A stretch of 63,743 nt of DNA, counting the filler, from Raillietiella orientalis (Eukaryota): NCBI GenBank assembly GCA_036172245.1. It is 3 parts of 3 records of this genome, joined end to end, with 100 filler letters (N's around TTAATTAATTAA, not from the genome) between each part and the next. Parts side by side here need not be neighbours in the genome. Positions count along the whole stretch, not along the records: positions 21,828 to 42,872 come from JAYWIR010000233.1; 2 more parts are not named here. One strand, given 5' to 3'. Every line of letters starts with the position of its first letter. Position 1 is the stretch's first letter. The position numbers and the translations under genes are program-made. A model generated the notes under the pieces. The model searched no databases, was not told the origin of the DNA, and worked only from the letters and a program-made list of their open reading frames with translations. Positions 21,728 to 42,972 of the stretch are shown piece after piece.

Positions 21728-21827
21728 NNNNNNNNNNNNNNNNNNNNNNNNNNNNNNNNNNNNNNNNNNNNTTAATTAATTAANNNNNNNNNNNNNNNNN
21801 NNNNNNNNNNNNNNNNNNNNNNNNNNN
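21728..21827. other. Artificial contig-concatenation linker (44 N + TTAATTAATTAA + 44 N)
   Basis: Exactly 100 nt with a six-frame-stop core; identical to the linker at 42873-42972. Confidence 0.97.
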
Positions 21828-23164
21828 CGTCATCGATGGTGGTGTCGATGACGGTCGCCGCAGCCGGCTCGCTCTTCTTACTGTTGACAAAGTCAACAGA
21901 GGGGAGGTCGTAGGTAGCGGCGAGTTCTTTCTGGCAGCTTTCGGCAACATCGACAACGCGTTTGACGACGACGCTGCACTCTGTAATTATCGCGCTACCC
22001 TGCTTTTTCTTCTTCTGTTAGTAGGCGATTTTTTTTTCCATCCTCCACTCCTTCTTTGATTTTTTTGCCGTTGCCACTTGCCACTCAGTCTTCTGGTTGG
22101 CTCCCTCAACTTTTTCGGCGTTGGTCGCCGGGGTCTCGGGTTCGGCCTGGGTCTTAAGCGCGGGTGGCACAGCCTTCACGGCAGCTTTCGCCGCCATTCT
22201 TTTCTGCAGAAGCCGGGCGCGTTATTTAAGGCTTCTCTTGGAAACCACCCGCACTGCTGCTTTTTGGCACACCTCCCTCGTGTGCCCCATTGTGCCGCAT
22301 ACTTAGCACTGCACGTTGGGACACCTCTTCTTGAGGTGGCCCGATGTATTGGAGAAGCCACAGTTTTTCGGCTTCCCCACATTCCAGAGGTCGACGGTTC
22401 CGCCTTCGACCACCAGTTTGTAGGGAAGAGTGCAGCCCTTTCGAACGGTCACGCGCGCAGCCGTGAGGCCGTGTTGCAGCCTTGTGTAGTCCCCGAAAGT
22501 ACAATCTTTTGTCCACTGCGCGTGGACCGTTCCAAATTGTTCCAGCGCGGCACGAACCTGATCTTTGCGCATTCGCGCGGTTACACCTAACAGGTGGACC
22601 ACCATGCTGCGGTCCGCCGTAGTGGGGAGAAGCCTACGCGTCCCCATTTCAACATGGGTTTTAAGCAGTCGTTGGACCAGCTCTGCATGCTTGCAGATGA
22701 CCTCAACGTACTGACCCTTGCTGCGGATGATCATAGCGATGAGCTCCTCCTGTTTCACATCGAGAGCGCGCATGCCCTTCGTAAAGGCGCGCGCGCTCTC
22801 TAAAGAATATAGATTGCCTATCTTGTAGAACAATGAGTTGCTATACCCCTCCTCTACATAGACCGACAATTCCGCCGCGGCTGCAGGCGATGAAGCCGAC
22901 ACAACGACGGTCCACGCCCGCGCTGCAGCGGGGACCGATTCTGTGAAGGCGGATGCCCTAACCTCCATCGCCTCTGGGGGCGACGTTGCCGCCGCCCTCT
23001 GGCTCTCAATCGCCTCTGAGGACGGCGTTGCCGCTGCCTCCTGGCCATCCCTGGAGGTCGCGTCAGGCATCCCTGCCTGATCGACCACCGAACCACACGA
23101 CGCTTGCACTGGGGGAGACGTCCTGGCACAAGGAGCACCGAGAAAACACGTTGTGAACCGAAAC
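21828..23164 (-). mobile_element. LINE piece A: 5' region and decayed gag-like ORF1 of an L1/Tx1-like element, cut by the contig edge
   Basis: ORF 22303-23109 (EGYSNSLFYKIGNL...RSMVVHLLGVTARM...AARVTV) is homologous to the ORF1s at 34795 and 40487. It has zinc knuckles CGFSNTSGHLKKRC and C*VCGTMGHTREVC with an in-frame stop, then a Lys-rich tail with ECSVVVKR and ELAAT motifs. Confidence 0.88.
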
Positions 23165-25895
23165 GTTCTCCGCCTCCTAAAGCGTCACTACTCCTCGTTG
23201 TATGTTATGTAGCCAACGGAACGCAGTCTCTCGGAGCTGCTTCTGCCGACGGATTCCCCTGCGGTCGATGAGGAGGAACGCGCCACTCTTGACTTGCCCT
23301 TCACGGCGGAAGAAGTGTCTTCCGCCATAGCGGGCCTCAAGAAGCGCAAGGCGCCAGGTGAGGATAGTTTGCCTGCGGAGTTCTTCCAGTGCTCCGCGGC
23401 GGAACTCATCCCCCTGGTGCTTATGCTTTCTGAGCTGATGCAAGATACGGGCAATGTACCGGCCTCGTTTCGCTCAGCAAAGGTGCGTCTGTTGCCGAAA
23501 GGCGGAGACATGCGCCTTTTAAGCAACTTTCGTATCATCACCTTGGTGAATGCGAAAGTCAAGTTGTTCTCCAGGCTGTGGGTCGCGCGCCTGGGCAGGA
23601 TCGCTGGATCCGTGGTAAATCCGGAGCAGTCTTACGCTGTTCCCGGGCTGTCCATGGAGGCGAACCTGTTCTTCGCGCGCTCGTGGCTCGAGCTGCAACG
23701 CTGCGTGGCGCACGACAGCCAGGCAACCGCATCTGCGGCTGCTGAGGCTAGGCGTCTCTGCATTTGGCCTGGGTAAGCGCCGTGTGCCTTGGCGGTCGCG
23801 TCGATCTTTGCAAGGCGTTCGATTGCGTAAATCAGGATCTCCTGCTGGAGCTCCTGGAACGCCTCGGTCTCCCGGTGCACCTCGTGGCGTATTTGCGCGC
23901 TTGCTGGCGCCACGCGCTCATTTCCATCTCTTTTAGCGGCTGCCACGTGAACGGCGTGCCGGTGCGGCGGGGCATCAGGCAGGGCGACAGCTGAAGCCCG
24001 TTGCTCTTCAGCATCTTCTTTGTGTTAATGCTGAGGGCGTATAGGATGACCCTGGCCAACCTGCCGAGCTCTTGTCCATGAACGCCGTCCTCGGTGGCCT
24101 ATGCTGACCAACTGCTTCTCATCTTACCCATGATCACCGCGGCGTCCAGTCTCGAGGATTTCTTCGAGCTGATTCGCCGGGGAGCGGGCATGAGCGTAAA
24201 CCAAGGCAAGAGCGTGGTCGTACCTATTGGTGCGGCGTGGGAGGGGCAGTCCGACTGGATCCGCCTAAGGATCCCGACCGCTTCCTCCTTGCAATATCTG
24301 GGCTATCCGCTGGGGAACATCAGCCCAGTGGAAGTGTGGTCGGACTGCCTTCGGAAGGCTTCGAATGCCCTGAGCCCGTTCCACCATGGCAGGTTCGTCC
24401 TACCGGAGCGGGCCACGACATGGAACAGCTTCGTTGCCCCCTTCTTGCGCCTCCTGCCTTTTGATTGCCCGCTTCCCTACTCGGCCAAGCTCCAGGCGCA
24501 CAGCCTGTTGAGGAACGCTTTGTGGGGACCTGCGAGTTCCAGGGTCCGCCTGAAAAACTTGGCGGCTCCGCGTCGGGATGCTGGCTTTGGCATCCTGATA
24601 CTGGAGAGAATCGAGCTGCAGGTGCTGCTTCGGATGTTGGCCCTGTGCGCCAACCTTTGGTCCACTCCGTGGTGGGCTCCCGCGCGCCTGCTTCTGCGGC
24701 GCTGCACAGACAGCGATGGATTTCTGTCGCTACGGCCGCACACGGAGCGCGCCACGAGAAGCTTCGGTTTCCCCTTTTAACCGCTTTACTGGCTCCTGGA
24801 TGCCCAGGAATGGATCTCCTGCCGCCCAAGGAACTTTCAAGCCTCGCGGCAGGAACCGTTGCATGGCTGGGCAAAGCTCCAGGATGTTTCCCTCCTTGAA
24901 CTCCGTTGCGCTCACCTCTCCCCGTAGTTCACGGTGGATGAAGTCTGGAACAGCCAGGAGAAGTAAACTCGCGTGACCGTAACGCCCCTCCCCGATGCGC
25001 AGTTAACCCTCAGGGGAAGAGATGACAGCTGCGATCGGGAGAGATGGGAGGTCGCCTGCACCAACGCAGGAAAAACGCGACCTATTGGCGTCTGGAGGAC
25101 TTACGAGCTGGCAGATGCCGCCACGCCTCGCCACATACCGAAGGGACTCCTTCGGTGGAGCGAACACTTGAGTGTGCCCCCCAAGAACTTGCTGTTTCTC
25201 CCTCGTGTTTGAACACTTCTGTGTTCCCCCTTTCGTCGAATCAGGACGTAATTATGCTGGTGCATTGGGGTTTTCACTCCAACCAGCGCACGAACCTTGT
25301 ATCCGGGGGAGTTGTCATCCCAAACTGTAAGCGGTGCGGAAAGTGGAAACGCTCCTGCACCTGCACTTGGACTGCGGTGCACTCCTAGGACTGTGGTGGA
25401 GGCTGGCCTAAGCTCACCTGCACCAGCTGGACACCTCGAGGGATTTGTTGCGCCGCTATTTCACGCCAGGCGGCCTGTCCTTAGGTGCTGTTGTTGTAAC
25501 CGTCTGTTGCATTTGCGCCATCGACAAGTCCCACAGACAACTGGAGAAGTTGGCCATCCTTCGTCAGCCCACCGGCTTAGCCAGCACCAGCATGTCGTCG
25601 GCCGCCATGTGGGTGCATCTTCCAGAGAGCGTGAGGAAAGATATCGCAGTCATCCATCGCCGGTTCTGAAAGGAAGGAACGGCAGAACCAAAGACTTCTG
25701 TCCCCTACCCTCCATATCTTTATTTTTATTTTGTTATACGGTGTATTTGTGGTCCCCTCCCTCCCGTTTTGGGTTTCGGCATACCGACCTGCGTGTCGGG
25801 GATCCCACCCCCTTCGTCTCTTGTTTTCCCCTTTGTCCAGGAACCCGGTTCCCGGATAGTTTACAATAAACGTCCCGGCGCACCCGGGTGATAAA
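23165..25895 (+). mobile_element. LINE piece B: decayed ORF2 from the APE-RT linker through RT and the C-terminal CCHC, plus the complete 3' UTR
   Basis: Motifs KAPGEDSLPAEFF, LLPKGGDMR..NFRIITLVN, VDLCKAFDCVNQ, RRGIRQGDS*SP, VAYADQ (degenerate YADD), YLGYPL and a C-terminal CKRCG..HLHLDC. Several stops and frameshifts; ORF2 stop at 25669; ends AATAAA-hairpin-TGATAAA. Confidence 0.93.
25784..25895 (+). promoter_or_regulatory. Structured 3' terminus of LINE B (CTGCGT-loop hairpin, AATAAA, terminal CCCGG/CCGGG hairpin)
   Basis: CCGAC-CTGCGT-GTCGG at 25784-25799; AATAAA at 25865-25870; CCCGG-CGCAC-CCGGG at 25874-25888; then TGATAAA. Elements D and F have the same architecture. Confidence 0.75.
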
Positions 25896-26708
25896 CAGCG
25901 ACGGCGCGCGTCACCACGAACGACCGAAAGCTTATGCCTTCGCAGATACTCCTCAGTAACGTCGTCGTTTATCTGCGGTTTTCCGGGCAAACCCCAGCTT
26001 GCGGCAACCGCGGGAAGGAGAACCACCGTCCGCGGAAGTGCCCAACACGCAGTTGCCGATACTGTAAGCTGCCCGGCCACTCGATTAACGAGTGCGCCGA
26101 GCTATAACGTAAGAGAAGTGCGAGAAACCTCCACGCACCATCGCCGTCCGCGCCGACGCCATCCGTTTCGTCGTCGGGGAAGAAATCCAGCGCGAACGAG
26201 GATTCGCAGCGGAGAAGTAAAGAGTCCGCTTGCGCGGTCGATTCTCGGAGCTATGCTCCGCAAAAACCCGCGAGAAAGAACAAGAAGCTTCTCCAGGGTG
26301 CTTCAGTAAGGCTCCGAGCAACCCAGTGCGCTGATAACATCGGCCAGGCTGCAAAACCACAGCCGCTTCCGTCCGCTATCGCTCCGGAGAGAAATAACAG
26401 TGGCATGCTCGGAAAGTCCACCGGAGCTACGAAAAAGTAATCGCGCGCTTCTTTGCCCGAGACAGGCAAGCCGGCCACGGCTGGCCGAACGCCAGCAAAG
26501 GTTGAAAAGCCTCGCGCGACCCTCGAGAATCCCGCCACTCTGCCCGCACCTTTCGGTAAGAAGGTGCAGAAGGCAGACAAGGCGAAGGAGACACTGGTCT
26601 TTATCGCCGTGTCCGAGGCCTTGCGAAGGATGCGAAGGACCCTCTAAGCCCTCGCGCCCTGTTCCCGGATAGATTATAATAAACTCCTCGGCGCACCCGG
26701 TGAATAAA
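25896..26708 (+). mobile_element. Element C1: divergent ORF1 3' half followed directly by the LINE-type 3' end (candidate non-autonomous HAL1-like element)
   Basis: One frame from 25895 to 26647 (ATARV..MPSQILL..CGNRGKENHRPRKC, CRYCKLPGHSINEC..SEALRRMRRTL*) with two internal TAA. It is followed by 61 nt containing GTTCCCGGATAG..AATAAACTCCTCGGCGCACCCGGTGAATAAA, which matches B's end. No ORF2. Confidence 0.7.
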
Positions 26709-26985
26709 CAGCCGACCCCCTGCGATCTTCTTTATCTCCTGGACGTCTGCCGCGGTCATCACGTGGATCTCCTGCAGGAGTGCCAGGTCAATGTCACGCA
26801 GGGTGTCGGCCGTATCTCGTCTGTAGCTGTCCTCGCGCAGCCCGTAGACGTTCCAACTGGGCACGCGGATCCGACGGCGACAGGTGAGCCCAGGTGTTAT
26901 TCCTTGGAAATTGGCTCTGCGGCGTCCGCCACCTGTTGGGTCGGGACGCTAGGTGTAGGGAGAGGGTTAGTTGCTGAAGTCTGGA
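26709..26985 (-). mobile_element. LINE fragment I: ORF1 end and APE endonuclease start, same family as G
   Basis: QQVADAAEPISKE* followed by ..RRRIRVPSWNVYGLREDSYRRDTADTLRDIDLALLQEIHV..GGRL; nucleotide-similar to 42180-42420. Confidence 0.88.
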
Positions 26986-26989
26986 ATGG

Positions 26990-27463
26990 AACGGGCGACC
27001 AGCTCTGGAGCGAACTGGAACGCGTAGGGGTCCGAGAGGACGATCTCCTGGCACTGATGCCAGTTAGCGCGGTAGGCCATTGAAGGGTGCACAGCAAGGA
27101 TGCAGCCCTCGTCCAGCGCCTGCTGCGAACACCCCTTAAATTCGGGGGAAGGAGGTCGTCCCCTCGGCCCTCGATCAATCGTTGGTGGTCCAGCTCTCGG
27201 GCATTCCGACGAGAATCACGGACAACGATATCATTGTTGCACTCGAGGCGTTCGCCACAGTGCACGCGATGTGGAGGCGCGCGAAGCCGATCGATAAAGT
27301 CGCGCGCTTCTCTTGCGGAATCGCCACGGCGCGCGTCAATATGGACGACCGGAGGCTCATGCCTTCGCAGATCCTCCTCGGTGACGTCGTCGTCTATCTC
27401 CGGTTTGCCGGGCAAACCCCCGCTTGCGGCAACTGCGGGAAGGAGGGACACCGTCCACGGTGA
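26990..27463 (+). mobile_element. Element C2: second ORF1 fragment of the C family
   Basis: LWSELERVGVREDDLLAL..H*RVHSKDAALVQRLL (frameshift) VVQLSGIPTR..ATARVNMDDRRLMPSQILLGDVVVYLRFAGQTPACGNCGKEGHRPR; 27325-27460 is similar to 25896-26035. Confidence 0.82.
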
Positions 27464-27469
27464 CAGTCA

Positions 27470-28286
27470 TTCCCGCAGTTGGCGTGGGGTTGCCGACTTT
27501 CCCTATCCCTTTCTTCTCTCTTCTCTGCAGGTGCACCTATGTGCTTGCGAAGAAAAGGTTGGCATCCATACTTCGCCCGGGAACAGCATAAGTCTGCTCC
27601 GGGCTAATTACGAATTCTGCCACCTGCCCCAGACGCGAAGCCCATAGCCCTGCTATCAACTTGGCGTCCGTATTCATGATCGTGATCGGACGCCAGTTCT
27701 TTAAATCCCTGAGGTCTCATCCTTTCGGTAGGAGCCTCACTCTCGCTGACCGAAACGAGGCGGGAACTTCGCCTTCGTCTCGGATCAGCCTGATCAACTT
27801 AAGCAACAGGAGTGTCAGCACTTCCGCGAAGCTCTGAAAGAACTCCGAGGGCAAGCCGTCTTTCCCTGGAGCTTAACGCCTCTTGAGCCTTTTGATACCG
27901 GCGAGAATATCGCCGGTGGTAAAAGGCTCCTCGAGGCTTTCCATCTTCTCCTCCCCTATTGCCGGGAGCCCATCTGGAAACAAGCGCCGAGAGGCGTCTC
28001 AATCCGGAGGCTCCCTGGCGTAAAGGGAGGAATAAAAACTTCGCACGAGATGGCGTACCGACGCCGGGGACGAACATTCCCGGCCCTGGTCGTCCAGCAA
28101 GATGGCCGACCCGGATTGCCAGGCTTGGCGTTCGGCCCCGGCGCAGTACTCCTCCAGGCGACGGACATTAGGGGTTATCTCGTACCTACGGGCTTGTAAG
28201 TAGGCCCGATGGTTGCGAGCACCCTCGCCGAATCCGGAAGACAGGCGGTCCAGGGAGAACTGCTCGCAGAACTCCCGGACGGAGGC
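27470..28286 (-). mobile_element. LINE piece H (downstream part): APE-RT linker and RT N-terminus, family of F/G
   Basis: ASVREFCEQF..GFGEGARNHRAYLQAR..RQAWQSGS..APGKDGLPSEFF..NWRPITIMNTDAKLIAGLWASRLG..PEQTYAVPGRS; closely similar to 39560-40255; contains stops. Confidence 0.9.
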
Positions 28287-30045
28287 TGACTCTCGGCTCT
28301 GTCGCCGAGAGGGTATCCATCTTCGAGAGGTGCCCGTCATCGTTATCCTCGTCGCCCTTTGAGCGCCGAGACGACGCGTCCTCGCCCCCGCTCCTCGGTC
28401 CCGCGGCCGAACAGCACCAGCCGGAGGGTGCCGGCGGTGCGGTATGGAGGGCGAGCGACGCCGCCCGCGCCCATCACCACCAGGAAGAGCCACCACAGGA
28501 AGCAGCAGCAGCAGGTGCAGATCACGCTCATCCGCCTCCTGGCGCTGCCGTTCAGCCGACTCGTAACTCTGCAGCCGAAATTCCAAGATTCTACTTTCCG
28601 TTCGGCCGCCCACAAGCTGCCGACGCGGCGGTGCAGTCCAGGGTTGTCGACCTGTTCCGACAGTTTCCCGACTCCTGTTTGCCGCAGGACCACTGCGAGA
28701 GCTTAGCAAAGGCACGTGGGTTCCCCCTTTACTGGAAAAGACCGCTGTTCTTGGCAGCTCAAGAAGACCACCGTGAGGTTCTGGAATTGAATGCCTTCCG
28801 GGAGTTTTTGGAAAGAACTTCTAGGCTCTTATCCACCAACCACGACGCAGCGTCGCAGCTGGTTGCCATCCTGACGAAAGGGAGGAGAAACTACTTGATC
28901 CCAGAGGACTTTCACCCTCTTATCCAGGACGTCATCGACACCCACCCGGGGCTCATGTTCCTGAGGGAAGCCAGCGAGTTCCACTCCCGCTACATCCACA
29001 CAGTCACGGCCCGCATCTTCTACTGCGTGAACCGCTCGTGGTCCGGCATCGTGAGCCTGGCGGAGCTACGGCGCTCCGACCTGCTGGCCACGATCGAGCA
29101 GCTGGAGCAGGAAGAGGACATCAACCAGATCCACCGCTATTTCTCCTACGAGCATTTCTACGTCATCTACTGCAAGTTCTGGGAGCTGGACATGGACCAC
29201 GACATGTTCCTGGACAAAAACGACTTGGCCAGATACAACGATTTTGCGCTGTCGCAGAAGATCGTGGACTGAATCTTCTCCGGCGCGGTGATGCGCACCT
29301 CGAAGAACGGGCGGATGGCGTACGGCGACTTCATGTGGTTCCTGCTCTCCGCTGAGGACAAGCGCAACCCCACCGCCATCGAATACTGGTTCCGCTGCAT
29401 GGATCTGGACGGCGACGGCTTTCTGAGGCCCTTCAAGCTGCAGCACTTCTACGAGGAGCAGACGCAGCGCCTAGAAGCCATGGGTGTCGATGCCCTACCC
29501 ATCCCGGACTGTCTCCGCCAGATACTGGACATGGTAGCCCCTTCCCTGCCCGGCTGCATCTCCCTGCGAAACCTGAAGAGGTGCAAGATGGCGCCTGTGT
29601 TCTTCGACACCTTCCTGGACCTGGAAAAGTACCTGGAGAACGAGCAGCGCGACCCATTCGTCTCGCAGAGACCCCGACGCGGAAACGCCGGAGGTGTCCG
29701 ATTAGGACCGCTACGCGGCCAGCGAGTACGAGGCACTCGTGGCGGACGAGATCAGCGGCGAGCAGCAGAACCATTTCCTGTACGACGAAAACGAAGATCC
29801 GCTCGACAAAATTGGTGTTCTTGTCAAGTACCCGGAATTCGCGGATTCAGACGAGAGCTTCCGCGTCCCCGTGCTCCCTCGTGAAACCTCCGGCGGCGAG
29901 TTTCCAAATGCAGCCCCCGTTTTGCTGGGCCCATCCCTGAGAGCAGCAGCCATCTTTCCCCGCGGAGACGACGGAGACAGCACACCGCCCGCAGCCGCCG
30001 AACTCTCGGAGAACTCGTCACGTGGACTCGGACAAGACACCCGAT
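28287..30045 (+). pseudogene. PPP2R3: Intronless retrocopy of the protein phosphatase 2A regulatory subunit B'' (PR72/PR70, PPP2R3A/B-like, EF-hand)
   Basis: IPRFYFPFGRP, FPLYWKRPLF, LIQDVIDTHPGL.FL..A.EFHSRYI, FSYEHFYVIYCKFWELD.DHD, IEYWFRCMDLDGDG and FFDTF..LEKYL..EQRDPF are colinear with no introns. TGA at 29270-29272 replaces the Arg of D-R-IFSG; there is a frameshift near 29670 and a TAG at 29703. Both flanks are contiguous halves of LINE H. Confidence 0.93.
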
Positions 30046-30401
30046 TGCGCCCCCAATCCGAGAGACCCTGAAGCGCGACGCCTCTTAGGAATTCGCGAAG
30101 GTGTTCCTTCGCAACTGAGAGTCGCGTCCATTCCCCCGGCAGACGCGAATTCCTGAATGGCCGTCCCCTGTCGCGAGGTCGCATCTCGAAAATTAACCGG
30201 GAATGGTCCGACAGCGTGGAGGCAATCTTCCCCCGTTTGCCGACCCGTGAACACAGGTCAGCGTCGACGAAGACGTGGTCGATGCTGCGGACCATTCCGC
30301 TCTAACCAGCGAACAAGTTGAGCGCACGCATGGCGGCGCACCACTCGTTCATCGCGTTCTCTTGTGTTTCTGGCTCACCTGTTAGCAGACGGAGATTGAA
30401 A
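30046..30401 (-). mobile_element. LINE piece H (upstream part): C-terminal half of the APE endonuclease
   Basis: FNLRLLTGEPETQENAM..MVRSIDHVFVDADLC..STLSDHSRL..ALQGLSDWGR; matches the G APE at 42690-42872 and resumes at 28286 across the retrocopy. Confidence 0.9.
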
Positions 30402-30519
30402 TTTATCACCCGGTCACGCCGGGGCGTTTATTAATAATAATAAACTGGTCAGGGACAATGTGCCCAATTAACAGAACGACAGGGAACATAGAAAGATTAC
30501 CGGCACGCAGGCCTGGTAA
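30402..30519 (-). promoter_or_regulatory. Structured 3' terminus of LINE D
   Basis: On the minus strand: TTACC(A)GGC-CTGCGT-GCCGGTAA at 30519-30497; AATAAA at 30432-30427; then CCCGG-CGTGA-CCGGG-TGATAAA. Confidence 0.75.
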
Positions 30520-31702
30520 ACAAACCGATCGCAGCGTGGGAGGAATGATGGGAAACAAACAAAAATCAAAAACTGGAGGGAAGGGTAACAAGTATTTGGT
30601 TAAGCTCCGTACTCACGGGGATTTTAACAATGAGCACCTAAAATGTTCCGGAGCCTATGGAGACGCGAATGTGGGAAGAAAATACAAAATAAGTTTATGG
30701 AGGGTAGGGCAATGATCACCGGGTTGGCCGCTGCTGAGGGTGTGTAACCCGGCGGTGTATTGCGGCGAGATTCCTTTTTGTCTCCTCTGTCAAATGAGGC
30801 CATCTAGCGGATGCTCTTATCTTAAAGGATGCTATGCTGATTACCTCTTGGTGCTGTCCGTTGATTTCCAACGCCTGGCGGAAGGAAACTATCGCGCGTA
30901 TCAAACCGATGGTTGCAATCCTTGCGCTTCGGCACAGCCCGCTCGGCGTGAAGAATCGTCGCAGCAGGTCTCTTGCGCTGTCCACAAGATGCATTAGTGC
31001 TTTTGCCAGCCTACGCCACAGTCTTTGTAGGACACCGCAGTCCAGAAGTAGGTGCGGAATCGACTCCGTCGATCCGCACCGAACGCATTTCGCAGACCCA
31101 AGTCCCTCGGAGTCTGGATGCCAACGAACGTAGCACTGAAAACCCCAGTGAACGAAAAGCAGCACGGCTCGTTTCCAAGCAGGGGAGAGCAGCGAAGTGT
31201 CAATACACTATGGAGGGACTACAAGTTCTACGGGGGTGACAGCAAGTTCTTCTGCCCACCGGAGGAGTCCCTTTTCAGTAACACGAGGAGTGGCGGCGTC
31301 CGCCAACTCACCCCACTTCCAGGCGCCAAGGAGTTTCGATTTTCCCGCTATCGTGCAGAAAACCGCCCACCTCGCCGGTTGGCAACTGTCGTTTCTTGCC
31401 CTGAGGGCAGACAGCGCTGCGGCGAGAAGCCTGGCAGCCAGGGTAGAGAACTTCACCACGTCCTGCAGTACTTAATCCAAGAATCGTGGAAAAAATCAAC
31501 GCAGGGGGCAAAGATTTTCAGGGCGAATTCCTTGGAACCCCGCCAAGGATTCAACAGACTCCTGGCGCCAAGCTTCCAAGTTCATTGGGCGGCAGGAGAT
31601 CCACGAGTGAGCTTCCAGAAGTGCGGTCAACTGCCGCAATGGAAACCCGAAACCCCGCTTCCTGTATTGACTGCCCGGAAAAAGCGAGAGAAATCCTCCC
31701 CT

Positions 31703-33019
31703 TCACACGCATCTCAGCAGGAAAACGCGGGCTGGCACACACAGGGGGGATATCCATAGCTGGGCACACAGTGCCAGCAGTCGGAACTGCACCTGCAGTC
31801 CGATTCGTTCCATTGTCAGGATACCCAAACCAGCATCCCGACGCGGAGCTAACAAAACTTTAAGGCGGAACCTGGAACTCGCCGGACCCCAAACAGCGTT
31901 TCTGAGCAGGCGTTCATCCCGCTGTTTAACCGCATAGGGGGGGTCCAAAACAAAAAACAGGGGACGGAGGAGGGGGGCCACAAAGGTGTTCCAAATAGTC
32001 GCCCGTTCCTGCAAGGTAAAACTGCCGTTCAAGAACGGGCTGATGGCCAACTCTCCTTTCTGATGACAGTCCGCACACGCTTCGACTGCGCCGAAAGCGC
32101 CCAACGGAACGCCAAGGTACTTAAAGTACTCGCCCGTGAGGATCCATAGGCAAATCCAGTCGGACTGCCTCTCCCATGACGTACCCACAGGAAAGACTAC
32201 GCTCTTCTCTCTGTTCACGCTCACGCCCGCTCCCCGACGAATCAGGTCGAAGAAATCCTCGACACTAGACGCCGGGGTGGACATGGGGAGCAAAAGAAGC
32301 AGGTCATCAGCGTAGGCGGCCACGGCAGGCATTCCCGGGCAGGAGCTGAGCAAGTGAGACAGCGTCAGCCTGTATGCTCTAAGCACTAACTCAAAGAAGA
32401 TGCTGAACAGCAACTGCATTAAGCTGTCGCCCTGTCGGATGCCTCTACGCACGGAAATACCATACACGCCGCAGCCGCTAAAAGTGATGCAGGTTAGCGC
32501 GTGGCGCCAGCACGCGTTCAAACACACCAGGAGTTGCGCCGGGAACCCAAGGCGTTCCATAAGCTCCAAAAGCAGCTTCTGGTTTACGCAGTCAAACGCC
32601 TTGTGGAGATCGACCGAGACCGCCAAGGCACCTGGCGTTCCCTCCTGCCGTCGGCGCCTGTTCTTCTTGACTGCGGCAGTGACTTTCGCAGCAGCCTGGC
32701 TTTGCTGCGCCACAACCTTCTGCAGCTGCATCCATGTACGTGCGAAAAGGATGTTCGCATCCATGGATCGTCCAGGAACCGCGTAGGTTTGTTCCGGGCT
32801 TACCAGAGATGACGCGATAGTTCCTAACCGCGCGACCCACAGCTTAAAAAACAACTTGACGTCCCAGTTCACCAAGGTGATCGTACGCCAGTTGTTAAGT
32901 TGGCGCAAGTCTCCGCCTTTCGGCAGGAGACACACCTTTGCTGAGCGGAAGGAATCCAAGAGATTCCCGGATTCACTCATCAGCGTCGCGAGTCTTAGCA
33001 TCAAAGGAATGAGCTCCAC
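31703..33019 (-). pseudogene. Reverse transcriptase domain of LINE D (longest open segment, 438 aa)
   Basis: NWRTITLVNWDVK, VDLHKAFDCVNQ, RRGIRQGDSL, AVAAYADDLLL, FKYLGVP; frameshifts and stops on both sides. Confidence 0.93.
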
Positions 33020-34794
33020 TGCAAAGCACTGATAAAACTCTGCAGGGAGCCCATCCTCGCCTGGCGCCTTTCGTCTCTTCAGCCCAGCGATGGCGAACGG
33101 AATTTCATCCGCCGTGAAGCTTTCCTTGAGACGTTTGCGTTCCTCCTTGCCGATAACACGATCATCCTGCGACAGGAGTATCTAAGAGAGAATATCCACC
33201 GTCGGGGATTTCGTGTACAGCGAGGAGAAGTAGCGTCTCACAATGCGGCGTACTTCGGCTGGGGCCGAACATTCCTCGCCCTTGTCGTCCAACAGGCATG
33301 CTGCTCCGGTCTGCCAGACCTGGCGCTCGGCCCTCGCCTTGTACTCCGCGAGACTCCCGACATCCACGCGTCTCGAAAAAGTTCGGGCCTGCAGAAAGTC
33401 TCTACTTTTGGCCACGCCCTTTCCGAAACCGGTGGAAGATGGTGCAAAGGGAATTGGCAGCAGAACTCGCGTGCAGATCTTTTGAGATGGTTCCAGTCCG
33501 CAAGTTCTTGAATGGCAAAGCCTCGGAGGTGTCCACGTAGATGCTCCGCAGCCTCCGTTTGGCTAAGCCAATCGGCCATCATCCTCTAGTTTTGCAAAGG
33601 AGGTCCCCTGCCTGGCGGAAGGATCTCAAACTGCAACTTGTGGTGGTCAGAAAGCCTAGTCAACAATCATACTCTGCTACCCTGACGCGAATGCAGGTTT
33701 TCATCAAGGAAAAGGTGATCGAGCGATCTTTCCATTCCAGATTCGCTGAATATGAAGTTGGCGGCGTGCACGGACGCGCACATCTCGATGAACAGCGCGC
33801 GCTCCCTCGGGCGTCTCCAATTGTCAGAGAGCAGTCGGACGTTGAAGTCCCTAGCGACGAGGTGCGCCACATGGAATATGGAGTTGTTGAGCCAGTGGCC
33901 CTGCAACTCACCAAAGAAAGCTACTCTTTCTTTGAGGTAACGAGAGCCATTCGGCGCGTAGACGCTCGTAACGACGAGATCGAGGGACTCGGACCACTAG
34001 ATGACAAGCTGGCCTTTCCGTCCGTCGTCATCGAAACGAACACTACGCACCGCTTCCGCCATTTTTTGTTTTACGAGGAACGCGACGCCGCACGTGTGTG
34101 CGCGGCCGCACCGCCGATGTAGCGTTCCGTCTGCACGCTCCTCGATTTCGGCTGCCTGCTCGTCGGAGATTACGTGAATCTCCTGCAGAAGCGCGAGGTC
34201 GAAGGGGCGCAGGGCGTTGGCTACTAATCGCCTCTTCTCGTCGTTCTGTTGTCCGTTCACGTTCCAACACGCGACGGACAGACGACGAGAGCATGCGATT
34301 CCTTGCATTACTGCTGAGAAGGTGGCGGCTTTTTGCTCGCTTTATCCGGTTAGCAGACGGCGAGCAGCACGACTGGCTGGATGGGACAGTCGCCACCGTT
34401 CTCTGTCGTGCTGCATGCATGTAATGCCTCCACGCCAGGCTTAACCCCGTCGGGTTTCGTGGAGACTTCGCGTTGCTTCGCGGCGACCGTTGCCTGGCTG
34501 CCTACTTTTGATCGGCGCGCGCACGCTTTTGACTGAGTTGTCCTCGTCTCGGTGATCGGAACGGCATCTATTTCAGAGTCCGACCGGCGCATGTTCGATC
34601 GGGTTTCGGCCTTCCGCGAAGTAGTGACAGGTTCTGCTGGATTGACAGGTGTCCTGTTGTCGTTTTCCGACACCAGAGCATCGCTTAAATGCGGCAAACC
34701 CGCGCCGGTGCCGCACGCGTTTTTCTTCAGCTCCCGTGAGCGAATCCAAGCACGGTTGTCGGAAGTGTGAAAGTGCGGCCGTTGTGAGGCAGAA

Positions 34795-36429
34795 ATGCCT
34801 GAATACGCCGCAGTACCTGCGACGGGAGACGTGAGGCCCACGTCTCCCCAACCTATGCAGGTGGGGTCATGCCCCACCAGAAAATCAGCCCCCGCCACCC
34901 CGGCGAGGGCGTGGAACAAGGTGGCCGCGGCGGCTCCGCCGGACGTGGCCGCCAAAGTGCAGGCCTACATAAAGGAGGGCTACAACCCAGCCCTCCTTTA
35001 CAAGGTAGGAAATCTTGATTCATTGCTTACAACGCGGAAATTTGGAAACGCCATCCGTAGGATGGGAATATCTGACGAGGAGATTCTTTGCTTCTCGATT
35101 CGGAGCGGCGGGCAGTTCGCGGAGCTGATCTGCAAACATGGAGCGCTCACACACAAACTGCTCTGCATGCCCGTTCCGTTCGAAGGGTGGAATCTCCTCC
35201 CACACACGGTGGATCACTCTATGGTGATCCACCTCACGGGTACAACGGTGCGGATGACCAAGGAAGCCATCCGCACTGAAATCAACAAGTTCGCGGAGAT
35301 ATACGCGATGTGGTCGAAGCCCAACGCCTTTACTTACCGAGGCGCATTTAGTGGGCGAGTGGCCGCACGCGTAACTCTCTGCGAAAACAAAGAACTTTCC
35401 CACAAGCTTGAAGTCAACGACGAGCTCGCCGACCTCTGGTACCGATGGAAGGAAAAATACTGTGGGCTGTGCAACACATTCGGGCTTCTTAAAAAGAGAT
35501 GCCCGGATGCCAAATGCCCAACCTGCGGCGCGAAGGGCCACACTAGTGCTGTGTGCCCGAAAAACGCCGCGACAACGCCTTCAACCCCTTCGACAAATGA
35601 GGGAAAGAAGGCAGAAAACCAAAAAACGTGGGACCAACAGCCGACCTCAGAAGAAGTTGTGCACAAGGAGCAGGAGCCTCAAAAGGAGACTTCTGAGCCA
35701 ACTGCCGACGAGGAAAACTGGAAACTCGTGTCAAAAAAAAAAACAAAGGAAACACAAAAAAAAACCAAAGCTCCAAAAAAAAATAATAATAATACAAATC
35801 AGAACGCGAGCGTTTCCAAAAAACCCGCGGTCGGCAAACCAAAAATTTCGCCGCGCGAGTCGATGAAGGAATGCCGCGTTGCAATCGAGCGCGTTCCGTC
35901 GATCAAGCGTCGATCGGCGAACGCGACTCCCGCAACCGTCGCGAACGCCGCGGAACCGCCGCAGGAATCCTGCGACAAACACGCGAGCAGCAACGACGAG
36001 AAAAACTTCGCGAAGGCGGCGGAGGAACTCGCGGCCACCTTAATGCAGCCGCCTAAGGCTGCAAAGAAGGCCTTCGGACGTCCGGCGGAAGTTAGTGGCC
36101 CGGAAACTTCCGGGTCCGAGGCGGAAGCCGGCAACCCTACCACCGTCGCCCTCTGGAGGAGGAAGGCGGGCCAGAAGTCGGGCAACCTAATGCGCGTCGC
36201 TCCCCCTCAGGCTGAGGAGGAGGAGATGCGCTCGGATAGCGAGGAGGCGATGTCCGCGAGGTCAAGGGATCCCTCTATCGACAGCATCCGGTCGGTCGTT
36301 CCTATCGACCTCAGTCCGGCTGCAGACGTTCCGGTCGTTGCCGAAACGCCACCACCGCTGATGGACAACGACCAGCCGCCTCCCGAACAGGAGGCGGCAA
36401 TACACACGCCACCACCATCACTAGTATGA
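34795..36429 (+). CDS. LINE ORF1 gag-like nucleic-acid-binding protein, 544 aa, open reading frame
   Basis: RRM-like region (SMVIHLTGTTVRMTKEAIRTEINKFAEI), knuckles CGLCNTFGLLKKRC (His lost) and CPTCGAKGHTSAVC, and a long Lys/Pro/Glu-rich tail. The host element is broken, so it is probably not functional. Confidence 0.85.
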   Translation: MPEYAAVPATGDVRPTSPQPMQVGSCPTRKSAPATPARAWNKVAAAAPPDVAAKVQAYIKEGYNPALLYKVGNLDSLLTTRKFGNAIRRMGISDEEILCFSIRSGGQFAELICKHGALTHKLLCMPVPFEGWNLLPHTVDHSMVIHLTGTTVRMTKEAIRTEINKFAEIYAMWSKPNAFTYRGAFSGRVAARVTLCENKELSHKLEVNDELADLWYRWKEKYCGLCNTFGLLKKRCPDAKCPTCGAKGHTSAVCPKNAATTPSTPSTNEGKKAENQKTWDQQPTSEEVVHKEQEPQKETSEPTADEENWKLVSKKKTKETQKKTKAPKKNNNNTNQNASVSKKPAVGKPKISPRESMKECRVAIERVPSIKRRSANATPATVANAAEPPQESCDKHASSNDEKNFAKAAEELAATLMQPPKAAKKAFGRPAEVSGPETSGSEAEAGNPTTVALWRRKAGQKSGNLMRVAPPQAEEEEMRSDSEEAMSARSRDPSIDSIRSVVPIDLSPAADVPVVAETPPPLMDNDQPPPEQEAAIHTPPPSLV

Positions 36430-37313
36430 TGCGTGGAATCGCCTCTTGCAGGCAGCCGCATATAGCCTGTTGGAATGTCAGCGGGCTGCGTAGCGAAAGC
36501 AAGAGGCGTAGCGTGGCCGACACCCTGCGACCTTTCGACCTGGCACTTCTCCAAGAGGTGCATGCCCTCAGAGCAGAGGACGTCCAGGAAATCGAGAGGC
36601 TCACAGGGGGGAGGCTACTTTGGCGTGGTGGAGGAGACCACTCCCGCGGGGTGGCCTTCCTGCTAAAGACGGCCGTCGCCAATGCGGTGCGCAGTGCACA
36701 GTTCGACGAGGAAGGTCGAGTCGGACAACTTGTCCTTAAGTGGTCCGAATCGATCGACCTCGTAGTGACGAACCTGTACGCGACCTGCACCAGCCACAGG
36801 CGCGCAGAACGCACTGCGTTCTTCGAAGCCCTGCGGCAAGGCTGGCTGGACGAAGCAGGCGTGCGGCGGGCGCATCTGATAGCGGGAGACTTCAACGTCC
36901 GCCTGCTGTCGGAAGCGCATGACGTACGAGCACAATTGGTCAACGAGTTGTGTGCGGCTATGCACACACGCAACTTCTTGGCCGATGAAGCCAGGGCGAG
37001 AAGCATAATCGACCACGTGTTTCTCGATAATCACTTGTGTACGCGGGTGGGGACTCGAGGAGCAATTGCGTCGGAGCTGTCCGATCACCCTCGGCTAGTG
37101 ATTAACATTCATCCGCGCGACAGAGGTCCACCCTTCGAAGCGTGGCGCCTGCCGGGAGACTGGTTGCGACTCGCAGGAGCGCGCGAACATCTGCGCGCAT
37201 TCCTGCGTAGTTGCGAGTAGCAGACTCTCGCTGACTTGGATAAAATAAAACGCTCAGTCCGAGAGTTCTGTGACCAGTTTCCCTCCATCATCTTCCTCCA
37301 GGTTTCGGCGATG
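36426..37313 (+). pseudogene. LINE E ORF2 N-terminus: AP-like endonuclease (EEP fold)
   Basis: Catalytic motifs CWNVSG, LLQEVH, NLYA, AGDFNV, IDHVF and LSDH; stop at 37218-37220, then truncated. Confidence 0.93.
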
Positions 37314-37314
37314 C

Positions 37315-37437
37315 CACCCGGATACGCCGGGACGTTTATAAAAAACGTTTCAATTGTCAATACAGAACGTGGTACATGGCCCCACTGACGGTGACGCAAT
37401 ACCGGAACTGCCGGGACACCAAGACGCAGCTCAGTGT
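37315..37437 (-). promoter_or_regulatory. Structured 3' terminus of LINE F
   Basis: On the minus strand: ACACTGAG-CTGCGT-CTTGGTGT at 37437-37416 (two G-U pairs); TATAAA; CCCGG-CGTAT-CCGGG-TG. Confidence 0.72.
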
Positions 37438-40255
37438 GGCTCTCCTCAGCAGTAGAGGGGGATGGCGGAGAACACAAAAATAAAATAAAAGAGAAAAACA
37501 AACCACAAAAAAAAAAAGTTTGGAGGGCCGGGAAGGGATCACAGAGAACTGCTAGGAGGGCCGATCCTTTGCAGGATGCCTTCTAGTTCCTTTTTCATCC
37601 TTCCTAGATGGGTCCATCCGGTAGATCTCTGCAGGAAGCGAGAAGCATACTCGATAACATCCCTCACGATGCAGTCTTCATCTTCGGCATCACTCGAGGC
37701 CGCCACTATACCACGAATGCAGCAAAGTGCTGCCAGGGCTGCAGCTGGACTGAGGGCGTCCCGCACGAAGACAAGACCGAAGATACATTCACCATTGCCA
37801 CCATTCGGTATCCCAAGTGCCGTTTGAAGACGTTCCCAAAAAATCCGGACGGCAGGGCATTCAACTAAGAGGTGGGGGAGCGAATCCCGCTCCCCACACC
37901 TGGCACACGCAGGATTTACTCTTCCCCGCGTCCAGTGGAAGCGGCGCGCGTTGCAGGGTAGACCCCAATGCAGCCACAGAAGCGCCGATTCTTGCCACTT
38001 CAGGGGAAGAATCCTGTATTTAAGTAGAACCGGGGGCCACTCCAGGTCAGACAATCGAATGCCGAGCAGCTCGCCTTATCTTCTTAATCCACGCGGCTGG
38101 ATACTAGGGGTCGTTGCATCTCTCAACTCTCCCATGGCCCAGCCGCTCATCGTTTTTTCTCTGCCTGCGATACGGCAGCAGACTTGCCACCTTGGCTTCC
38201 GGCTTTCGTGAAGCGCCTTTTGGAGGAAGGGCATCGCTGTAACAAGGGGTGTGCCTTCCGCCCACGTGCAACTCGGTGCAAATTCAAGTATTTCACGTAG
38301 AGCTCGACGGGCGTAAAAGCCGATTCGCAGGCAGTTCATCTGGTCTTCGCACCTCTGGTTCAGCTTGGCCCAGGTGCCAGCAGTCTCTTCCAAGCAAGCG
38401 AAGAAGTTGGCAGGGCCACAAACCATCCAGTCGTTCTCCTTTGCCAGGGTTGCCATGCGGCCGAGCAGTAGACCGCATCTTCGAATCTTCCGGCCAGGGC
38501 ACAGAAGAAACGATGCGAGTCCTTCGCAGCGGGACACACGCCTGGCCAGGAGACGGGCCGGAATGTACCAAGCGGTGCTCCACATCTTCGCTGCGATGGC
38601 GAGGGTCCGCCATCGCAGCTGGATTTGCACGCGCTCCAGCGTCAGGATGCTGAGACCGCCGTCCCGACGCGGAGCGCACAATTCCTTCAAAGGGACTTCG
38701 GGTCTCCCCTTGCCCCAAAGAGCTATGCGGAGGAGGTCCTTCGTCCGCTTTTTCGATTCCACGGGGGCGGGGCAAACAAAAAGCAAGGGGAAGAGTATGG
38801 GGGCCGCGAAGGCGTTCCAAACCCCGGCTCGTTCTGGGAAGTGAAGCTTGCCTTCCAGGAACGGGCCAATCGCCGTCTCGACTTTTTGGAGACAGCTGGA
38901 CCGGCTTCCGCAGGGGAGAAGTCCCCCAACGGCACACCGAGGTACTTGATGCACCTCACCGTTGGGATCCCCAGACGGACCCAGTCCTGCTGCCCTGCCC
39001 ACGTCGCTCCAACTGGCAACACTGACGACTTCGCCGTGTTGACCTGTAATCCGGCCCCACGGCTAAGCCGGTCGAAGAAATCTCCGACCGCCTTCGCAGG
39101 GGTGGACATAGGTAAGAGGAGCAGAAGATCGTCGGCATACGCCGCTACGGCTGGCGTGCCGGGGCACGAGCTCGGCAAGGGAGCCAACGTCACCCTTTAC
39201 GATCTCAGCACCAACACAGCGTAGGTGCTAAAAAGCAGGGGGCTGAGGCTGTCGCCCTGCATTATGCCCCGCCGCACCGGCACGCCATACACCTTTTGTC
39301 CACTGAAAGTAATTGAGATTATCGCGTTCCGTTAGCAAGAGCGCAGGTAGGTAATCAAGAAGGGCTGGAAGCCCATGCGACCCAGGAGCTCCAAGAGGAG
39401 TTCCTGGTCAACACAGTCGAATGCCTTATGGAGGTCGACTGCGATCGCTAAGGCCCCTTTTCCCGCATTAGGGTTTCTACCCTGTTTCACTGACGACCTC
39501 AAAGTAGGGTTGCAAATATTCCCTTTCCCTTCTTTATTACTCCGCTGCGCGTGCATCCATGTGCTCGCGAAGAAGAGGTTGTCCTCTATACTTCGCCCGG
39601 GAACAGCGTATGTCTGCTCCGGGCTAATTATGAAATTAAACACCTGCCCCAATCGCGACGCCCACAGCCCGGCAATCAACTTGGCGTCCGTGTTCACAAT
39701 CGTGATCGGACGCCAGTTGCAAAGTTTCCAGAGGTCTCCTCCCTTCGGGAGGAGGCTCACCCTGGCTGACCGAAACGAGGCCAAAACATTGCCTTCGTCT
39801 CGGATTCGCCTTGTCAACTCGAGCACTAGGGGGGCCAGCTCTTCCGGGAAACTCTGAAAGAACTCCGCGGGCAAGCCGTCTTCCCCTGGCGCCTTACGCC
39901 TCTTGAACCTTTTGAGACCGGCGAGAATTTCACCGGTCGTGAAAGGCTCATCGAGGCTTTCTCTCTCCTCCTCCCCTATCGCCACGGAACCACTCATGAG
40001 CAATCGCCGCGAGCCGTCTTGTTTGGGTGGAGTTTTGGCGTAAAGGGAGGAATAAAAACATCGCACCAGATTCCGTACTGCAGACGGGGACGAACGTTCC
40101 CGGCCCAGGTCATCCAGCATGCTGGTTGACCCGGATTGCCAGGCTTGTCGCTCGGCTCCGGCGCGGTATTCGGCCAGGCGACGGACATTGGGGTTCCTCT
40201 CGTGACCACGCGCGTGCATATACGCGCGTTCGTTGCGAGCCTCTACGCCGAATCC
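37315..40255 (-). mobile_element. LINE piece F: ORF2 from the linker (GFGVEAR..) through RT and CCHC to the 3' end
   Basis: KAPGEDGLPAEFF, NWRPITIVNTDAK, VDLHKAFDCVDQ, RRGIMQGDSLSP, AVAAYADDLLL, KYLGVP, CARCGERDSLPHLLVEC; stop at 37539; ends TATAAACGTCCCGGCGTATCCGGGTG; contains stops and frameshifts. Confidence 0.94.
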
Positions 40256-40276: not shown

Positions 40277-41572
40277 CTTTTCCTGCGCTCCGCCTGCGTG
40301 GCAAAGCGAGTGTTTTATCTTCTTGAGTGATTTGTGCGTGCACATCGTCGGTGTCCGATCGCAACGTTGCCAGAGGACACCGCGATGGAAGTAGGTGTGG
40401 AAGATGCTTGTTCGCCATTACAGCCTACTGGATCAGGGGCATCCGCCCCGGAATAGTTTCCGGCGACGCCGAGGTCATGGAGCGCCATGATGGCCGCGCC
40501 TAGCGTGGAAGCCATGGTCGAGATGGAAGGCTACAAGAAAGCGGGATATAAACCCTCGCTAGTCTACAAGGTAGGCAACCTTTTCGATGGGCGAACTGCA
40601 CGCGCCTTTACGAAGGCGCTGCAGAACGCCAATATTTTTGAAAAAGATCTCGACGGCCTCTGCGTTCTCAGCCGCGGGCAGCGGGTAAAGGTGGTATGCA
40701 AGGATATCACCTTGGCCCGACACCTGATCACCAACCCGCTGATCGTTGATGGTCGGAACATCTTGCCGATAACGATGGACCGCTGTGTGGTGGTCCATCT
40801 CACTGGGATCTCCAGTCGCATGACGAGGTCAGCGGTTCGAGAGCAGCTACAAAAGCACGGAGAAGTGCACGCGTTGTGGCCGCAGTCCACGATTTTCCAA
40901 GGCTACAATAGCCTTTTCGGAGGTCAAGCTGCTGCGCGTATCACGGTAAAAGAGGGTGGTGCGCTTCCCCATAAGCTGGAGGTCTGCCAAGAAGCGGTGG
41001 ACCTCTTGTACGTGGGAAAACGCCAATTTTGTGGTTACTGCAATGCAGTAGGGCATCTACGAAAAAGGTGCCCGAACATTTTGTGCCACCTATGCGGCGA
41101 AAAGGGTCACGTTCGGCGCGTGTGCCCCAAGCGCCCCACCTCGGTGCCCCCTGCCGCCAAAAAGGCGCAGGGAAAACGTGGAAAGCAGGTAGAAAGACCA
41201 GCTCGCGAAAATGGCCGTTCCCAACTGCCAGCCTCCCTTCCTCCCGTACAGACGTAGGAGGAAATAGCTCCCGTGGACGCGGGAATGGAGAAGGGTTGGC
41301 AGCTGGTTCAGGCCAGAAAAGAGAAAAAAAAGAAAGTGATGATAGAAGAAAATTCGGTAAAGAAAACTGCCGGCAACAAGAAAAAAGCCGCGCCGCTTTC
41401 AAAAAAAAAACTCCGCGAATGCTCGGTGGCACTGGAACGCTTATCCGTTCCTGCCGAGTCCGCCCGCGGCAATGTTCGCGGAACAGCTGATGCGGACGCG
41501 ATGAATACTCGCGTGGACGAGCCCAATCTACGTGTGGAGGGTGAGACGCGAGACTCGCGCGCCGACAGCCAG

Positions 41573-42872: not shown

Positions 42873-42972
42873 NNNNNNNNNNNNNNNNNNNNNNNNNNNN
42901 NNNNNNNNNNNNNNNNTTAATTAATTAANNNNNNNNNNNNNNNNNNNNNNNNNNNNNNNNNNNNNNNNNNNN
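42873..42972. other. Artificial contig-concatenation linker (44 N + TTAATTAATTAA + 44 N)
   Basis: Same 100-nt spacer as 21728-21827. Confidence 0.97.

Follow-up and report, generated by a model that had tools for sequence, protein, structure and literature searches.

A hairpin-bearing 3′ end without poly(A) shared by three diverged L1-like LINE families of Raillietiella orientalis: a candidate recognition module

The stringent type of long interspersed nuclear element (LINE) is defined by a conserved 3′ hairpin whose loop is kept while its stem varies (PMC3472496, PMC4176376). In the L2-clade elements UnaL2, ZfL2-1 and ZfL2-2, the protein encoded by the second open reading frame (ORF2p) binds a conserved 3′ stem-loop whose loop bases are critical, according to PMC4176376. 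Within the L1 clade, a monocot lineage has a conserved 3′ hairpin in which the stem varies with compensatory changes and the loop and flank are kept, and it shares its tail with short interspersed nuclear elements (SINEs); of 15 green-algal L1-clade families, 2 end in (A)n and 5 carry no repeat (table 1), and the Chlamydomonas element L1-1_CR shares its tail with a SINE (PMC3472496). The ancestral L1 itself has been proposed to be stringent (Ohshima 2012, PMC3472496). In lizard, frog and fish, the untranslated regions (UTRs) of L1 contain C-rich polypyrimidine and T-rich tracts, with AATAAA near the end, as described in PMC5381506. Here we report that three L1-like LINE families of Raillietiella orientalis, found in a 63,743-nt stretch of DNA from assembly GCA_036172245.1 (hereafter, the window), share a 3′ end in which short conserved islands, including two hairpins, are followed by no poly(A), and which may constitute a stringent-type recognition module.

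The window consists of three contigs separated by N linkers (21728-21827 and 42873-42972, each made of 44 N, TTAATTAATTAA and 44 N). The middle contig (21828-42872, JAYWIR010000233.1) has a GC content of 55-61% and is nearly all broken non-LTR (long terminal repeat) retrotransposons, which were mapped by tblastn using the contig's own open reading frames (ORFs). Three of these elements, B, D and F, are dead, 5′-truncated copies, each from a different, diverged family within a single LINE lineage of the L1 superfamily. The identity of their ORF2 DNA is 68.9% between B and D, 65.2% between D and F and 66.1% between B and F. The positions of the features described below are collected in Table 1.

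In the 3′ UTRs of B, D and F, a C-rich box, identical over 14 nt in B and D (CCCTACCCTCCATA) and present as CCCTCCA in F, comes first after the stop codon and is followed by a T-rich tract. Further downstream, a hairpin (hairpin 1) bears the hexaloop CTGCGT, identical at 6/6 positions, and the terminal hairpin starts 85, 87 and 98 nt after the start of this loop. In B, in D and in C1 (a decayed B-type tail of the same contig), the hexamer AATAAA precedes the terminal hairpin by 9 nt; F has TATAAA instead. Across families, the 3′ end is much better conserved than the remainder of the element, as in stringent-type LINEs: the last 25 nt of the B, D and F tails are 84-92% identical (21-23/25), against 65-69% for ORF2 DNA and 34-44% for the spacer between the hairpins (26-31 of 70-76 nt), a value no better than noise. 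Variation within this 25-nt block is confined to the Y that precedes the stem and the final three loop bases. Because the stem and its flanks are fixed while the loop is free and the surroundings have decayed, these data indicate a long-term constraint rather than a recent swap of tails. All of the motifs listed in the original prediction, an earlier description of this DNA, were found at their places in B, D and F; F has TATAAA rather than AATAAA, and no ATAAA tail. In the D UTR, the box and the T tract form a unit that is present in two copies, separated by ~125 nt of D-specific sequence (30590-30715, minus strand), which folds back on itself as a long local hairpin when the energy is minimised.

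The two hairpin motifs were compared with their background frequencies. In the whole window, the only three instances of CCCGG-N5-CCGGG are those at the ends of B, D and F; 0.04 are expected, and 0 of 100 shuffles reached three. The middle contig contains 21 CTGCGT sites, strands counted apart; the other 18 all have stems of 4 bp or less, and the loop sits, as had been claimed, on three different stems in B, D and F (Table 1). In this contig, a stem of at least 5 bp surrounds any 6-nt loop with a base rate of 1.0% (4.3% if a bulge is allowed) and a stem of at least 8 bp with a base rate of 0.1% (0.55% with a bulge), and from these rates the joint chance of the three hairpin 1 stems is ~1e-6. 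Among the eight pairs of hairpin 1, three are changed on both sides and three on one side. The two G-U pairs of F would turn into C-A mismatches on the opposite strand, so it is probably the sense RNA that folds. RNAalifold recovers both hairpin 1 and the terminal hairpin, and 88.9% of the cells are paired in the stated structure; sliding the partner columns lowers this share to 48.9% or less. Searched on the window, a covariance model of the three tails returned only the tails themselves (113-120 bits) and C1 (26639-26702, 26 bits, E ~1e-4).

Minimum-energy folds of short windows (34-54 nt) correspond to the proposed hairpins in D and F, where the last ~52 nt fold into AU and GC hairpins in tandem. 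The AU-rich hairpin is a third, newly found element: in B, D and F, an upstream A/U-rich arm pairs with (W)ATAAAC(GT). Its joint chance is ~2e-4 from the contig base rates with sliding allowed, a generous figure because the hairpin was sought after the folds had been seen. This pairing is lost in the decayed copy C1.

Four 3′ junctions, those of B, C1, D and F, could be placed within ~3 nt because the LINE copies that served as targets have paralogous, uninterrupted sequences. With the bases that can be assigned to either side given in brackets, B ends in ...GGGTGATAAA(CA) and meets an ORF1 fragment, C1 ends in ...GGTGAATAA(A) and meets the reverse complement of an apurinic/apyrimidinic endonuclease (APE) sequence like that of element H, D ends in ...GGGTGATAA(A) and also meets an H-like APE, and F ends in ...CCGGGTG(GCA) against the reverse complement of element G. 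The elements thus stop 0-8 nt past the terminal hairpin and 21-31 nt past the start of the hexamer. No poly(A) or simple-repeat tail is present at any of the four resolved junctions, and no A run exceeds 3 nt. The ends are therefore free of poly(A) in 4/4 cases, C1 included, as originally described. The poly(A) in which copies of relaxed, mammalian-type L1 end was found in 0/4, and the short tandem-repeat tail that is typical, though not universal, of stringent-type LINEs is missing as well. No shared target motif was seen among the four targets. Neither a target-site duplication nor a 5′ junction with continuing target was seen inside the contig.

Table 1. Positions of the 3′ UTR features and of the retrotransposon remnants in the middle contig (window coordinates)
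Feature	Position	Strand	Remarks
B, 3′ UTR	25670-25895	+	Stop codon to junction with ORF1 fragment; end uncertain by 2 nt (25895-25897)
B, C-rich box CCCTACCCTCCATA	25703-25716	+	T-rich tract next
B, hairpin 1: CCGAC / CTGCGT loop (25789-25794) / GTCGG	25784-25799	+	5 bp
B, AU-rich hairpin: GTTTA-CAA-TAAAC	25859-25871	+	5 bp; pairs part of AATAAA (25865-25870)
B, terminal hairpin: CCCGG-CGCAC-CCGGG (25874-25888), TG, tail ATAAA	25874-25895	+	
C1, decayed B-type tail: CTCGG-CGCAC-CCGG, TGAATAA(A)	26639-26707	+	Last ~70 nt; directly 3′ of ORF1 C-terminal fragment; abuts opposite-strand H-like APE fragment
D, 3′ UTR	30403-30715	-	Base 30402 (A) belongs to element or target
D, hairpin 1: TTACC(A)GGC / CTGCGT loop (30505-30510) / GCCGGTAA	30497-30519	-	3+5 bp, one bulged A
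D, AU-rich hairpin: GTTTATTA-TTAT-TAATAAAC	30426-30445	-	8 bp; pairs AATAAA
D, terminal hairpin: CCCGG-CGTGA-CCGGG (30409-30423), TG, ATAA(A)	30403-30423	-	
F, 3′ UTR	37315-37538	-	Ends ...CCGGGTG against reverse complement of G; end uncertain by 3 nt
F, hairpin 1: ACACTGAG / CTGCGT loop (37424-37429) / CTTGGTGT	37416-37437	-	8 bp including 2 G-U
F, AU-rich hairpin: ACGTTT-TTTAT-AAACGT	37332-37348	-	6 bp; pairs part of TATAAA
F, terminal hairpin: CCCGG-CGTAT-CCGGG (37317-37331), then TG	37315-37331	-	Without ATAAA tail
A, ORF1	22231-23184	-	tblastn
B, ORF2 remnant	23159-25669	+	RT to C-terminal zinc-finger region; tblastn 23159-25663; 5′-truncated, split over several frames
B, ORF2 stop codon	25667-25669	+	
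ORF1 fragment	from 25898	+	CCHC knuckle to C-terminal basic region
APE fragment	26706-26948	-	H-like
ORF1 fragment	27015-27451	+	
RT fragment	27483-28235	-	
PP2A B'' copy	28172-29881	+	Intronless copy of host gene
APE fragment	30083-30403	-	H-like
D, ORF2 remnant	30716-34350	-	APE, RT, C-terminal CxxC...H...C; tblastn 34350-30719; 5′-truncated, broken
G	34771-37217	+	ORF1 and APE
F, ORF2 remnant	37539 to ~40340	-	RT and C-terminal region; tblastn from 37542; 5′-truncated, broken; 5′ limit approximate
H	40361 to contig end	+	ORF1 and APE

By its protein architecture the lineage is L1-like (L1/Tx1 superfamily), yet isolated. Pfam matches above their own thresholds identified Exo_endo_phos (PF03372) in G (E 2.4e-13) and H (E 1.8e-12), RVT_1 (PF00078), the reverse transcriptase (RT) domain, in D (E 8.1e-17) and also in F, and zf-CCHC (PF00098) in the ORF1 of H (E 1.3e-5). 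In D, the APE precedes the RT on the same strand, which is the expected order, and the ORF1 copies of A, G and H share 39-43% identity. The C-termini of D and F match zf-RVT (PF13966) weakly (E 0.002-0.003, 18.5-19.2 bits, below the Pfam cut-off of 27.5), and a CxxC...H....C pattern is visible in both translations. When the D RT was compared with solved structures, a comparison that spans only the clades having one, human L1 ORF2p was the best match (E 8.5e-30), R2 being matched with E 5.8e-13. The APE, RT and CCHC domains, together with this proximity to human L1 ORF2p, bear out the L1/Tx1 architecture assigned to these elements beforehand. Among 1.84 billion representative proteins the nearest relative is a metagenome protein with 57% identity, and the next one shares 37%. 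Named relatives, at 37% or less, come from turtle, pseudoscorpion (7/20 looked up), thrips, fish, alga and fungus; word-based searches returned mostly plant L1-type proteins, with 22-30% identity.

How might such a 3′ end be used? Our leading proposal, to which we give an even chance, is that the tail common to B, D and F is a stringent-type 3′ recognition module. Such a module would open with the C-rich box and the T tract just past the stop codon and continue with hairpin 1, in which the invariant CUGCGU hexaloop would be carried by a freely changing stem of 5-8 bp. After an unconstrained spacer of ~80-92 nt, it would present the AU-rich hairpin pairing the W-AUAAA hexamer and, adjoining it, a GC hairpin, ACGY-CCCGG-N5-CCGGG-UG, placed 0-8 nt before the final base of the element. 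ORF2p would bind its own RNA at these hairpins, the CUGCGU loop being the obvious candidate for a specific contact, and target-primed reverse transcription would start just past the terminal hairpin; no poly(A) or repeat tail would be copied into the genome because initiation would occur directly after this hairpin. The conserved islands, the compensatory changes in the stem of hairpin 1, the junctions and the missing tails are observed directly; from there we infer that the RNA folds in this manner in the cell, that ORF2p is its reader and that the terminal hairpin positions initiation. A more specific version, possible in our view but doubtful, is that this animal L1-superfamily lineage is strictly hairpin-dependent and tail-less: the hexamer would be hidden in the AU hairpin, the RNA would end or be read at the GC hairpin, complementary DNA (cDNA) would start 0-8 nt later, much as in R2, and the second hairpin, with the CUGCGU loop, would have a guiding role. 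In R2, the protein binds a structured 3′ UTR, and cDNA synthesis begins precisely where the RNA ends and with no tail. R2 differs in having only one ORF, an endonuclease of the restriction-like type and a fixed target in the ribosomal DNA, and the match of the RT to R2 is, as given above, much weaker than that to L1.

Several results weigh against the recognition-module proposal. The sample comprises three full copies and one decayed copy, all of them broken. In the shuffle control, carried out on these three sequences, 70 of 500 shuffles reached the observed percentage of paired cells, which is not significant, and 143 of 500 reached the count of both-side changes. In the terminal helix, 7/7 pairs are invariant and show no covariation, so that an RNA stem is not separable from a conserved palindromic sequence. 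Folding energies of the whole UTRs are equal to those of shuffles (z +0.73, -0.24 and -0.24), and those of local windows give z values from +0.12 to -1.86. In whole-UTR ensembles, the pair probabilities of the proposed stems are low to moderate (0.01-0.44): those of hairpin 1 are 0.04 in B, 0.43 in D and 0.13 in F, and those of the terminal hairpin are 0.13, 0.01 and 0.20, respectively; in B, the terminal CCCGG can pair with an upstream CCCGG instead. The sequence that follows the terminal hairpin is also not uniform, being ATAAA in B and D, AATAA(A) in C1 and absent in F. The original prediction had presented both hairpins as covarying. This description is kept here for hairpin 1 only, which has the three both-side changes; it is withdrawn for the terminal helix, which is invariant, and the shuffles are not significant. 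Likewise, the suggestion of an RNA structure under selection agrees with the conserved islands, the compensatory changes of hairpin 1 and the sense-only G-U pairs, but is not borne out by terminal covariation or by folding energy.

The main rival to the recognition module is that the terminal block is mainly a signal for 3′-end formation: W-AUAAA and the GC hairpin would set the RNA end ~20-30 nt past the hexamer, the missing poly(A) would result either from RNA that ends without adenylation or from a tail that the RT disregards, and the hairpins would not be the recognition element of the RT. The position of the hexamer relative to the terminal hairpin and the distance from the hexamer to the end of the element, both given above, are what such a signal would require, and vertebrate L1s all end in AATAAA according to PMC5381506; the AU hairpin, which pairs the hexamer in all three UTRs, could moreover tune its use. 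Ordinary use of a poly(A) signal, however, should yield poly(A) RNA and A-tailed copies of L1 type, which account for 0/4 of the ends, and F carries only the weak TATAAA. As this explanation also leaves hairpin 1 and its invariant loop, ~85-98 nt upstream, unaccounted for, and as no Rfam 3′-processing element, including the histone stem-loop, is matched, we consider it unlikely. A histone-type 3′ stem-loop, which consists of a 6-bp stem and a 4-nt U-rich loop, was rejected for the terminal hairpin: its stem has 5 bp, its loop is a 5-nt CGNNN, and no histone stem-loop family is matched up to E 5.

The islands might instead be kept as primary sequence, either as a palindromic double-stranded DNA site or as single-stranded motifs to which a protein of the host or of the element binds, or the tail might be a module that moved from family to family by template switching, the stems of hairpin 1 being partly luck. 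A terminal stem that never varies in 7/7 pairs is what this would predict, a palindrome with a free central spacer resembles the site of a dimeric DNA-binding protein, and energy-based folding does not favour the hairpins. Chance alone would nonetheless have to place three stems around one loop (~1e-6), with 0 of 18 control CTGCGT sites alike; the G-U pairs of F are valid on the sense strand only, and after a recent swap of the module the loop and the Y position should still agree between families, but they differ. Given also that we know of no role for the 3′-end DNA of a LINE, a purely sequence-based conservation appears distinctly improbable, although it may hold for the terminal palindrome. 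That the similarity is a functionless leftover of common descent, or chance, is scarcely credible: only three sequences are available and every copy is dead, but 22 of the 25 terminal positions and the hexaloop agree in B, D and F where the spacer and the ORF2 DNA have diverged to the values reported above, and CCCGG-N5-CCGGG was found three times for 0.04 expected.

We asked whether the module is present elsewhere. Rfam has no family that reaches the gathering score, and the only two matches listed up to E 5 (E 0.44 and 1.5), a long non-coding RNA region and a bacterial small RNA, are weak and unrelated. A metagenome scan for the terminal motif yielded 19 loci, none of which (0) has an upstream hairpin or a box, and which look bacterial or due to chance; the same motif was found 0 times in viral contigs, and a slightly looser one gave 63 matches in contigs of prokaryote genomes, none of them related. 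A protein-guided search for loci identified one distant LINE (27% identity) in viral contigs, in which the best match to the model had E 0.63, and none in genome contigs. The motif was not found in a literature search, from which Repbase and Dfam lay outside, so that an existing family entry is possible. Whether such an end had already been described was left undecided by the original prediction: the module itself corresponds to no Rfam family, whereas the concept has been published for monocot and green-algal L1s (PMC3472496).

The closest described relatives differ from the Raillietiella elements in several respects. The LINE1-1_ZM group, whose tail is shared by maize and sorghum SINEs, likewise belongs to the L1 clade, has its last ~45 nt far better conserved than the rest and is read as stringent-type; its end has only one hairpin, whose loop is UCU and whose flank is CGAG, and poly(A) is still the end of most plant L1s (PMC3472496, PMC3747384). 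The Raillietiella elements, in contrast, have two or three hairpins with other sequences, are tail-less and live in an animal host. Green-algal L1s are likewise mostly without poly(A), but their hosts are algae and the main text of PMC3472496 contains no two-hairpin module. The L2-clade stringent LINEs, the model for the proposal made here, are from another clade and are supported by binding data and assays (PMC4176376); compared with them, the Raillietiella ends lack the repeat tail (0/4). The box, the T tract and the hexamer match the features of vertebrate L1 UTRs given in PMC5381506. In that paper, AATAAA is followed by poly(A) in all the species studied, whereas here there is no poly(A) and the hexamer is flanked by hairpins.

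The remainder of the middle contig is a nest of LINE fragments. At 25898-26707 (plus strand), an ORF1 fragment abuts the last ~70 nt of the B-type tail C1, with no ORF2 between them; possible explanations are a HAL1-like "half LINE" with ORF1 alone, template switching and a very short 5′-truncated insertion. A head-to-head arrangement, in which the 3′ part of a minus-strand element (D, F) faces the 5′ part of a plus-strand element (G, H), is seen twice, at 34350-34771 and ~40340-40360. D and G are different elements, as the overlap of their APEs is only 47% identical. H and F were considered as the halves of one twin-primed, 5′-inverted element; the breakpoints fit, but no similarity ties the two halves and this was not retained. 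The contig also contains a copy of the PP2A regulatory subunit B'' (EF-hand_13, P2R3B_EF-hand) with one in-frame stop codon (29270-29272). It is closest to arthropod proteins (57-61% identity; ~52% for vertebrates), which points to an arthropod, or a member of a nearby animal group, as the probable host. It is probably a processed pseudogene, with no poly(A) visible on its 3′ side. A simple insertion of this copy into one LINE was rejected, its two flanks being different LINE families.

Both outer contigs are satellite arrays. In contig 1 (1-21727), a 278-bp unit is repeated ~78 times over 1-21717 with 93-95% matches, and in contig 3 (42973-63743) a 180-bp unit is present in 115 copies with 90% matches, the long 'ORFs' of the latter array being a by-product of the repeat. 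The linkers join separate contigs, and the window therefore gives no evidence that the satellites lie next to the LINE nest in the genome.

LINE ends of this kind are already known; what is new here is the sequence of the module, its occurrence in an animal L1-like lineage and the lack of any tail whatever. On the present evidence, it is a plausible and modestly interesting transposable-element annotation rather than a surprise. The question of why mammalian L1 copies Alu elements and mRNAs as well turns on how L1-type RTs choose their template. Ohshima proposed that the relaxed, poly(A)-dependent mode arose from a stringent, hairpin-dependent one, for which the L1 clade offers few examples: one monocot lineage and one green alga (PMC3472496). 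A diverged lineage from animals that combines L1-like proteins with conserved 3′ hairpins and a tail-less end would add to them. An intact copy, if one exists, would provide a system in which RNA recognition can be compared within one superfamily. If the more specific, strictly hairpin-dependent version of the proposal is true, the Raillietiella elements would set an animal example beside those of plants and algae, and would favour the model of a stringent ancestral L1, with poly(A) dependence arising later and more than once.

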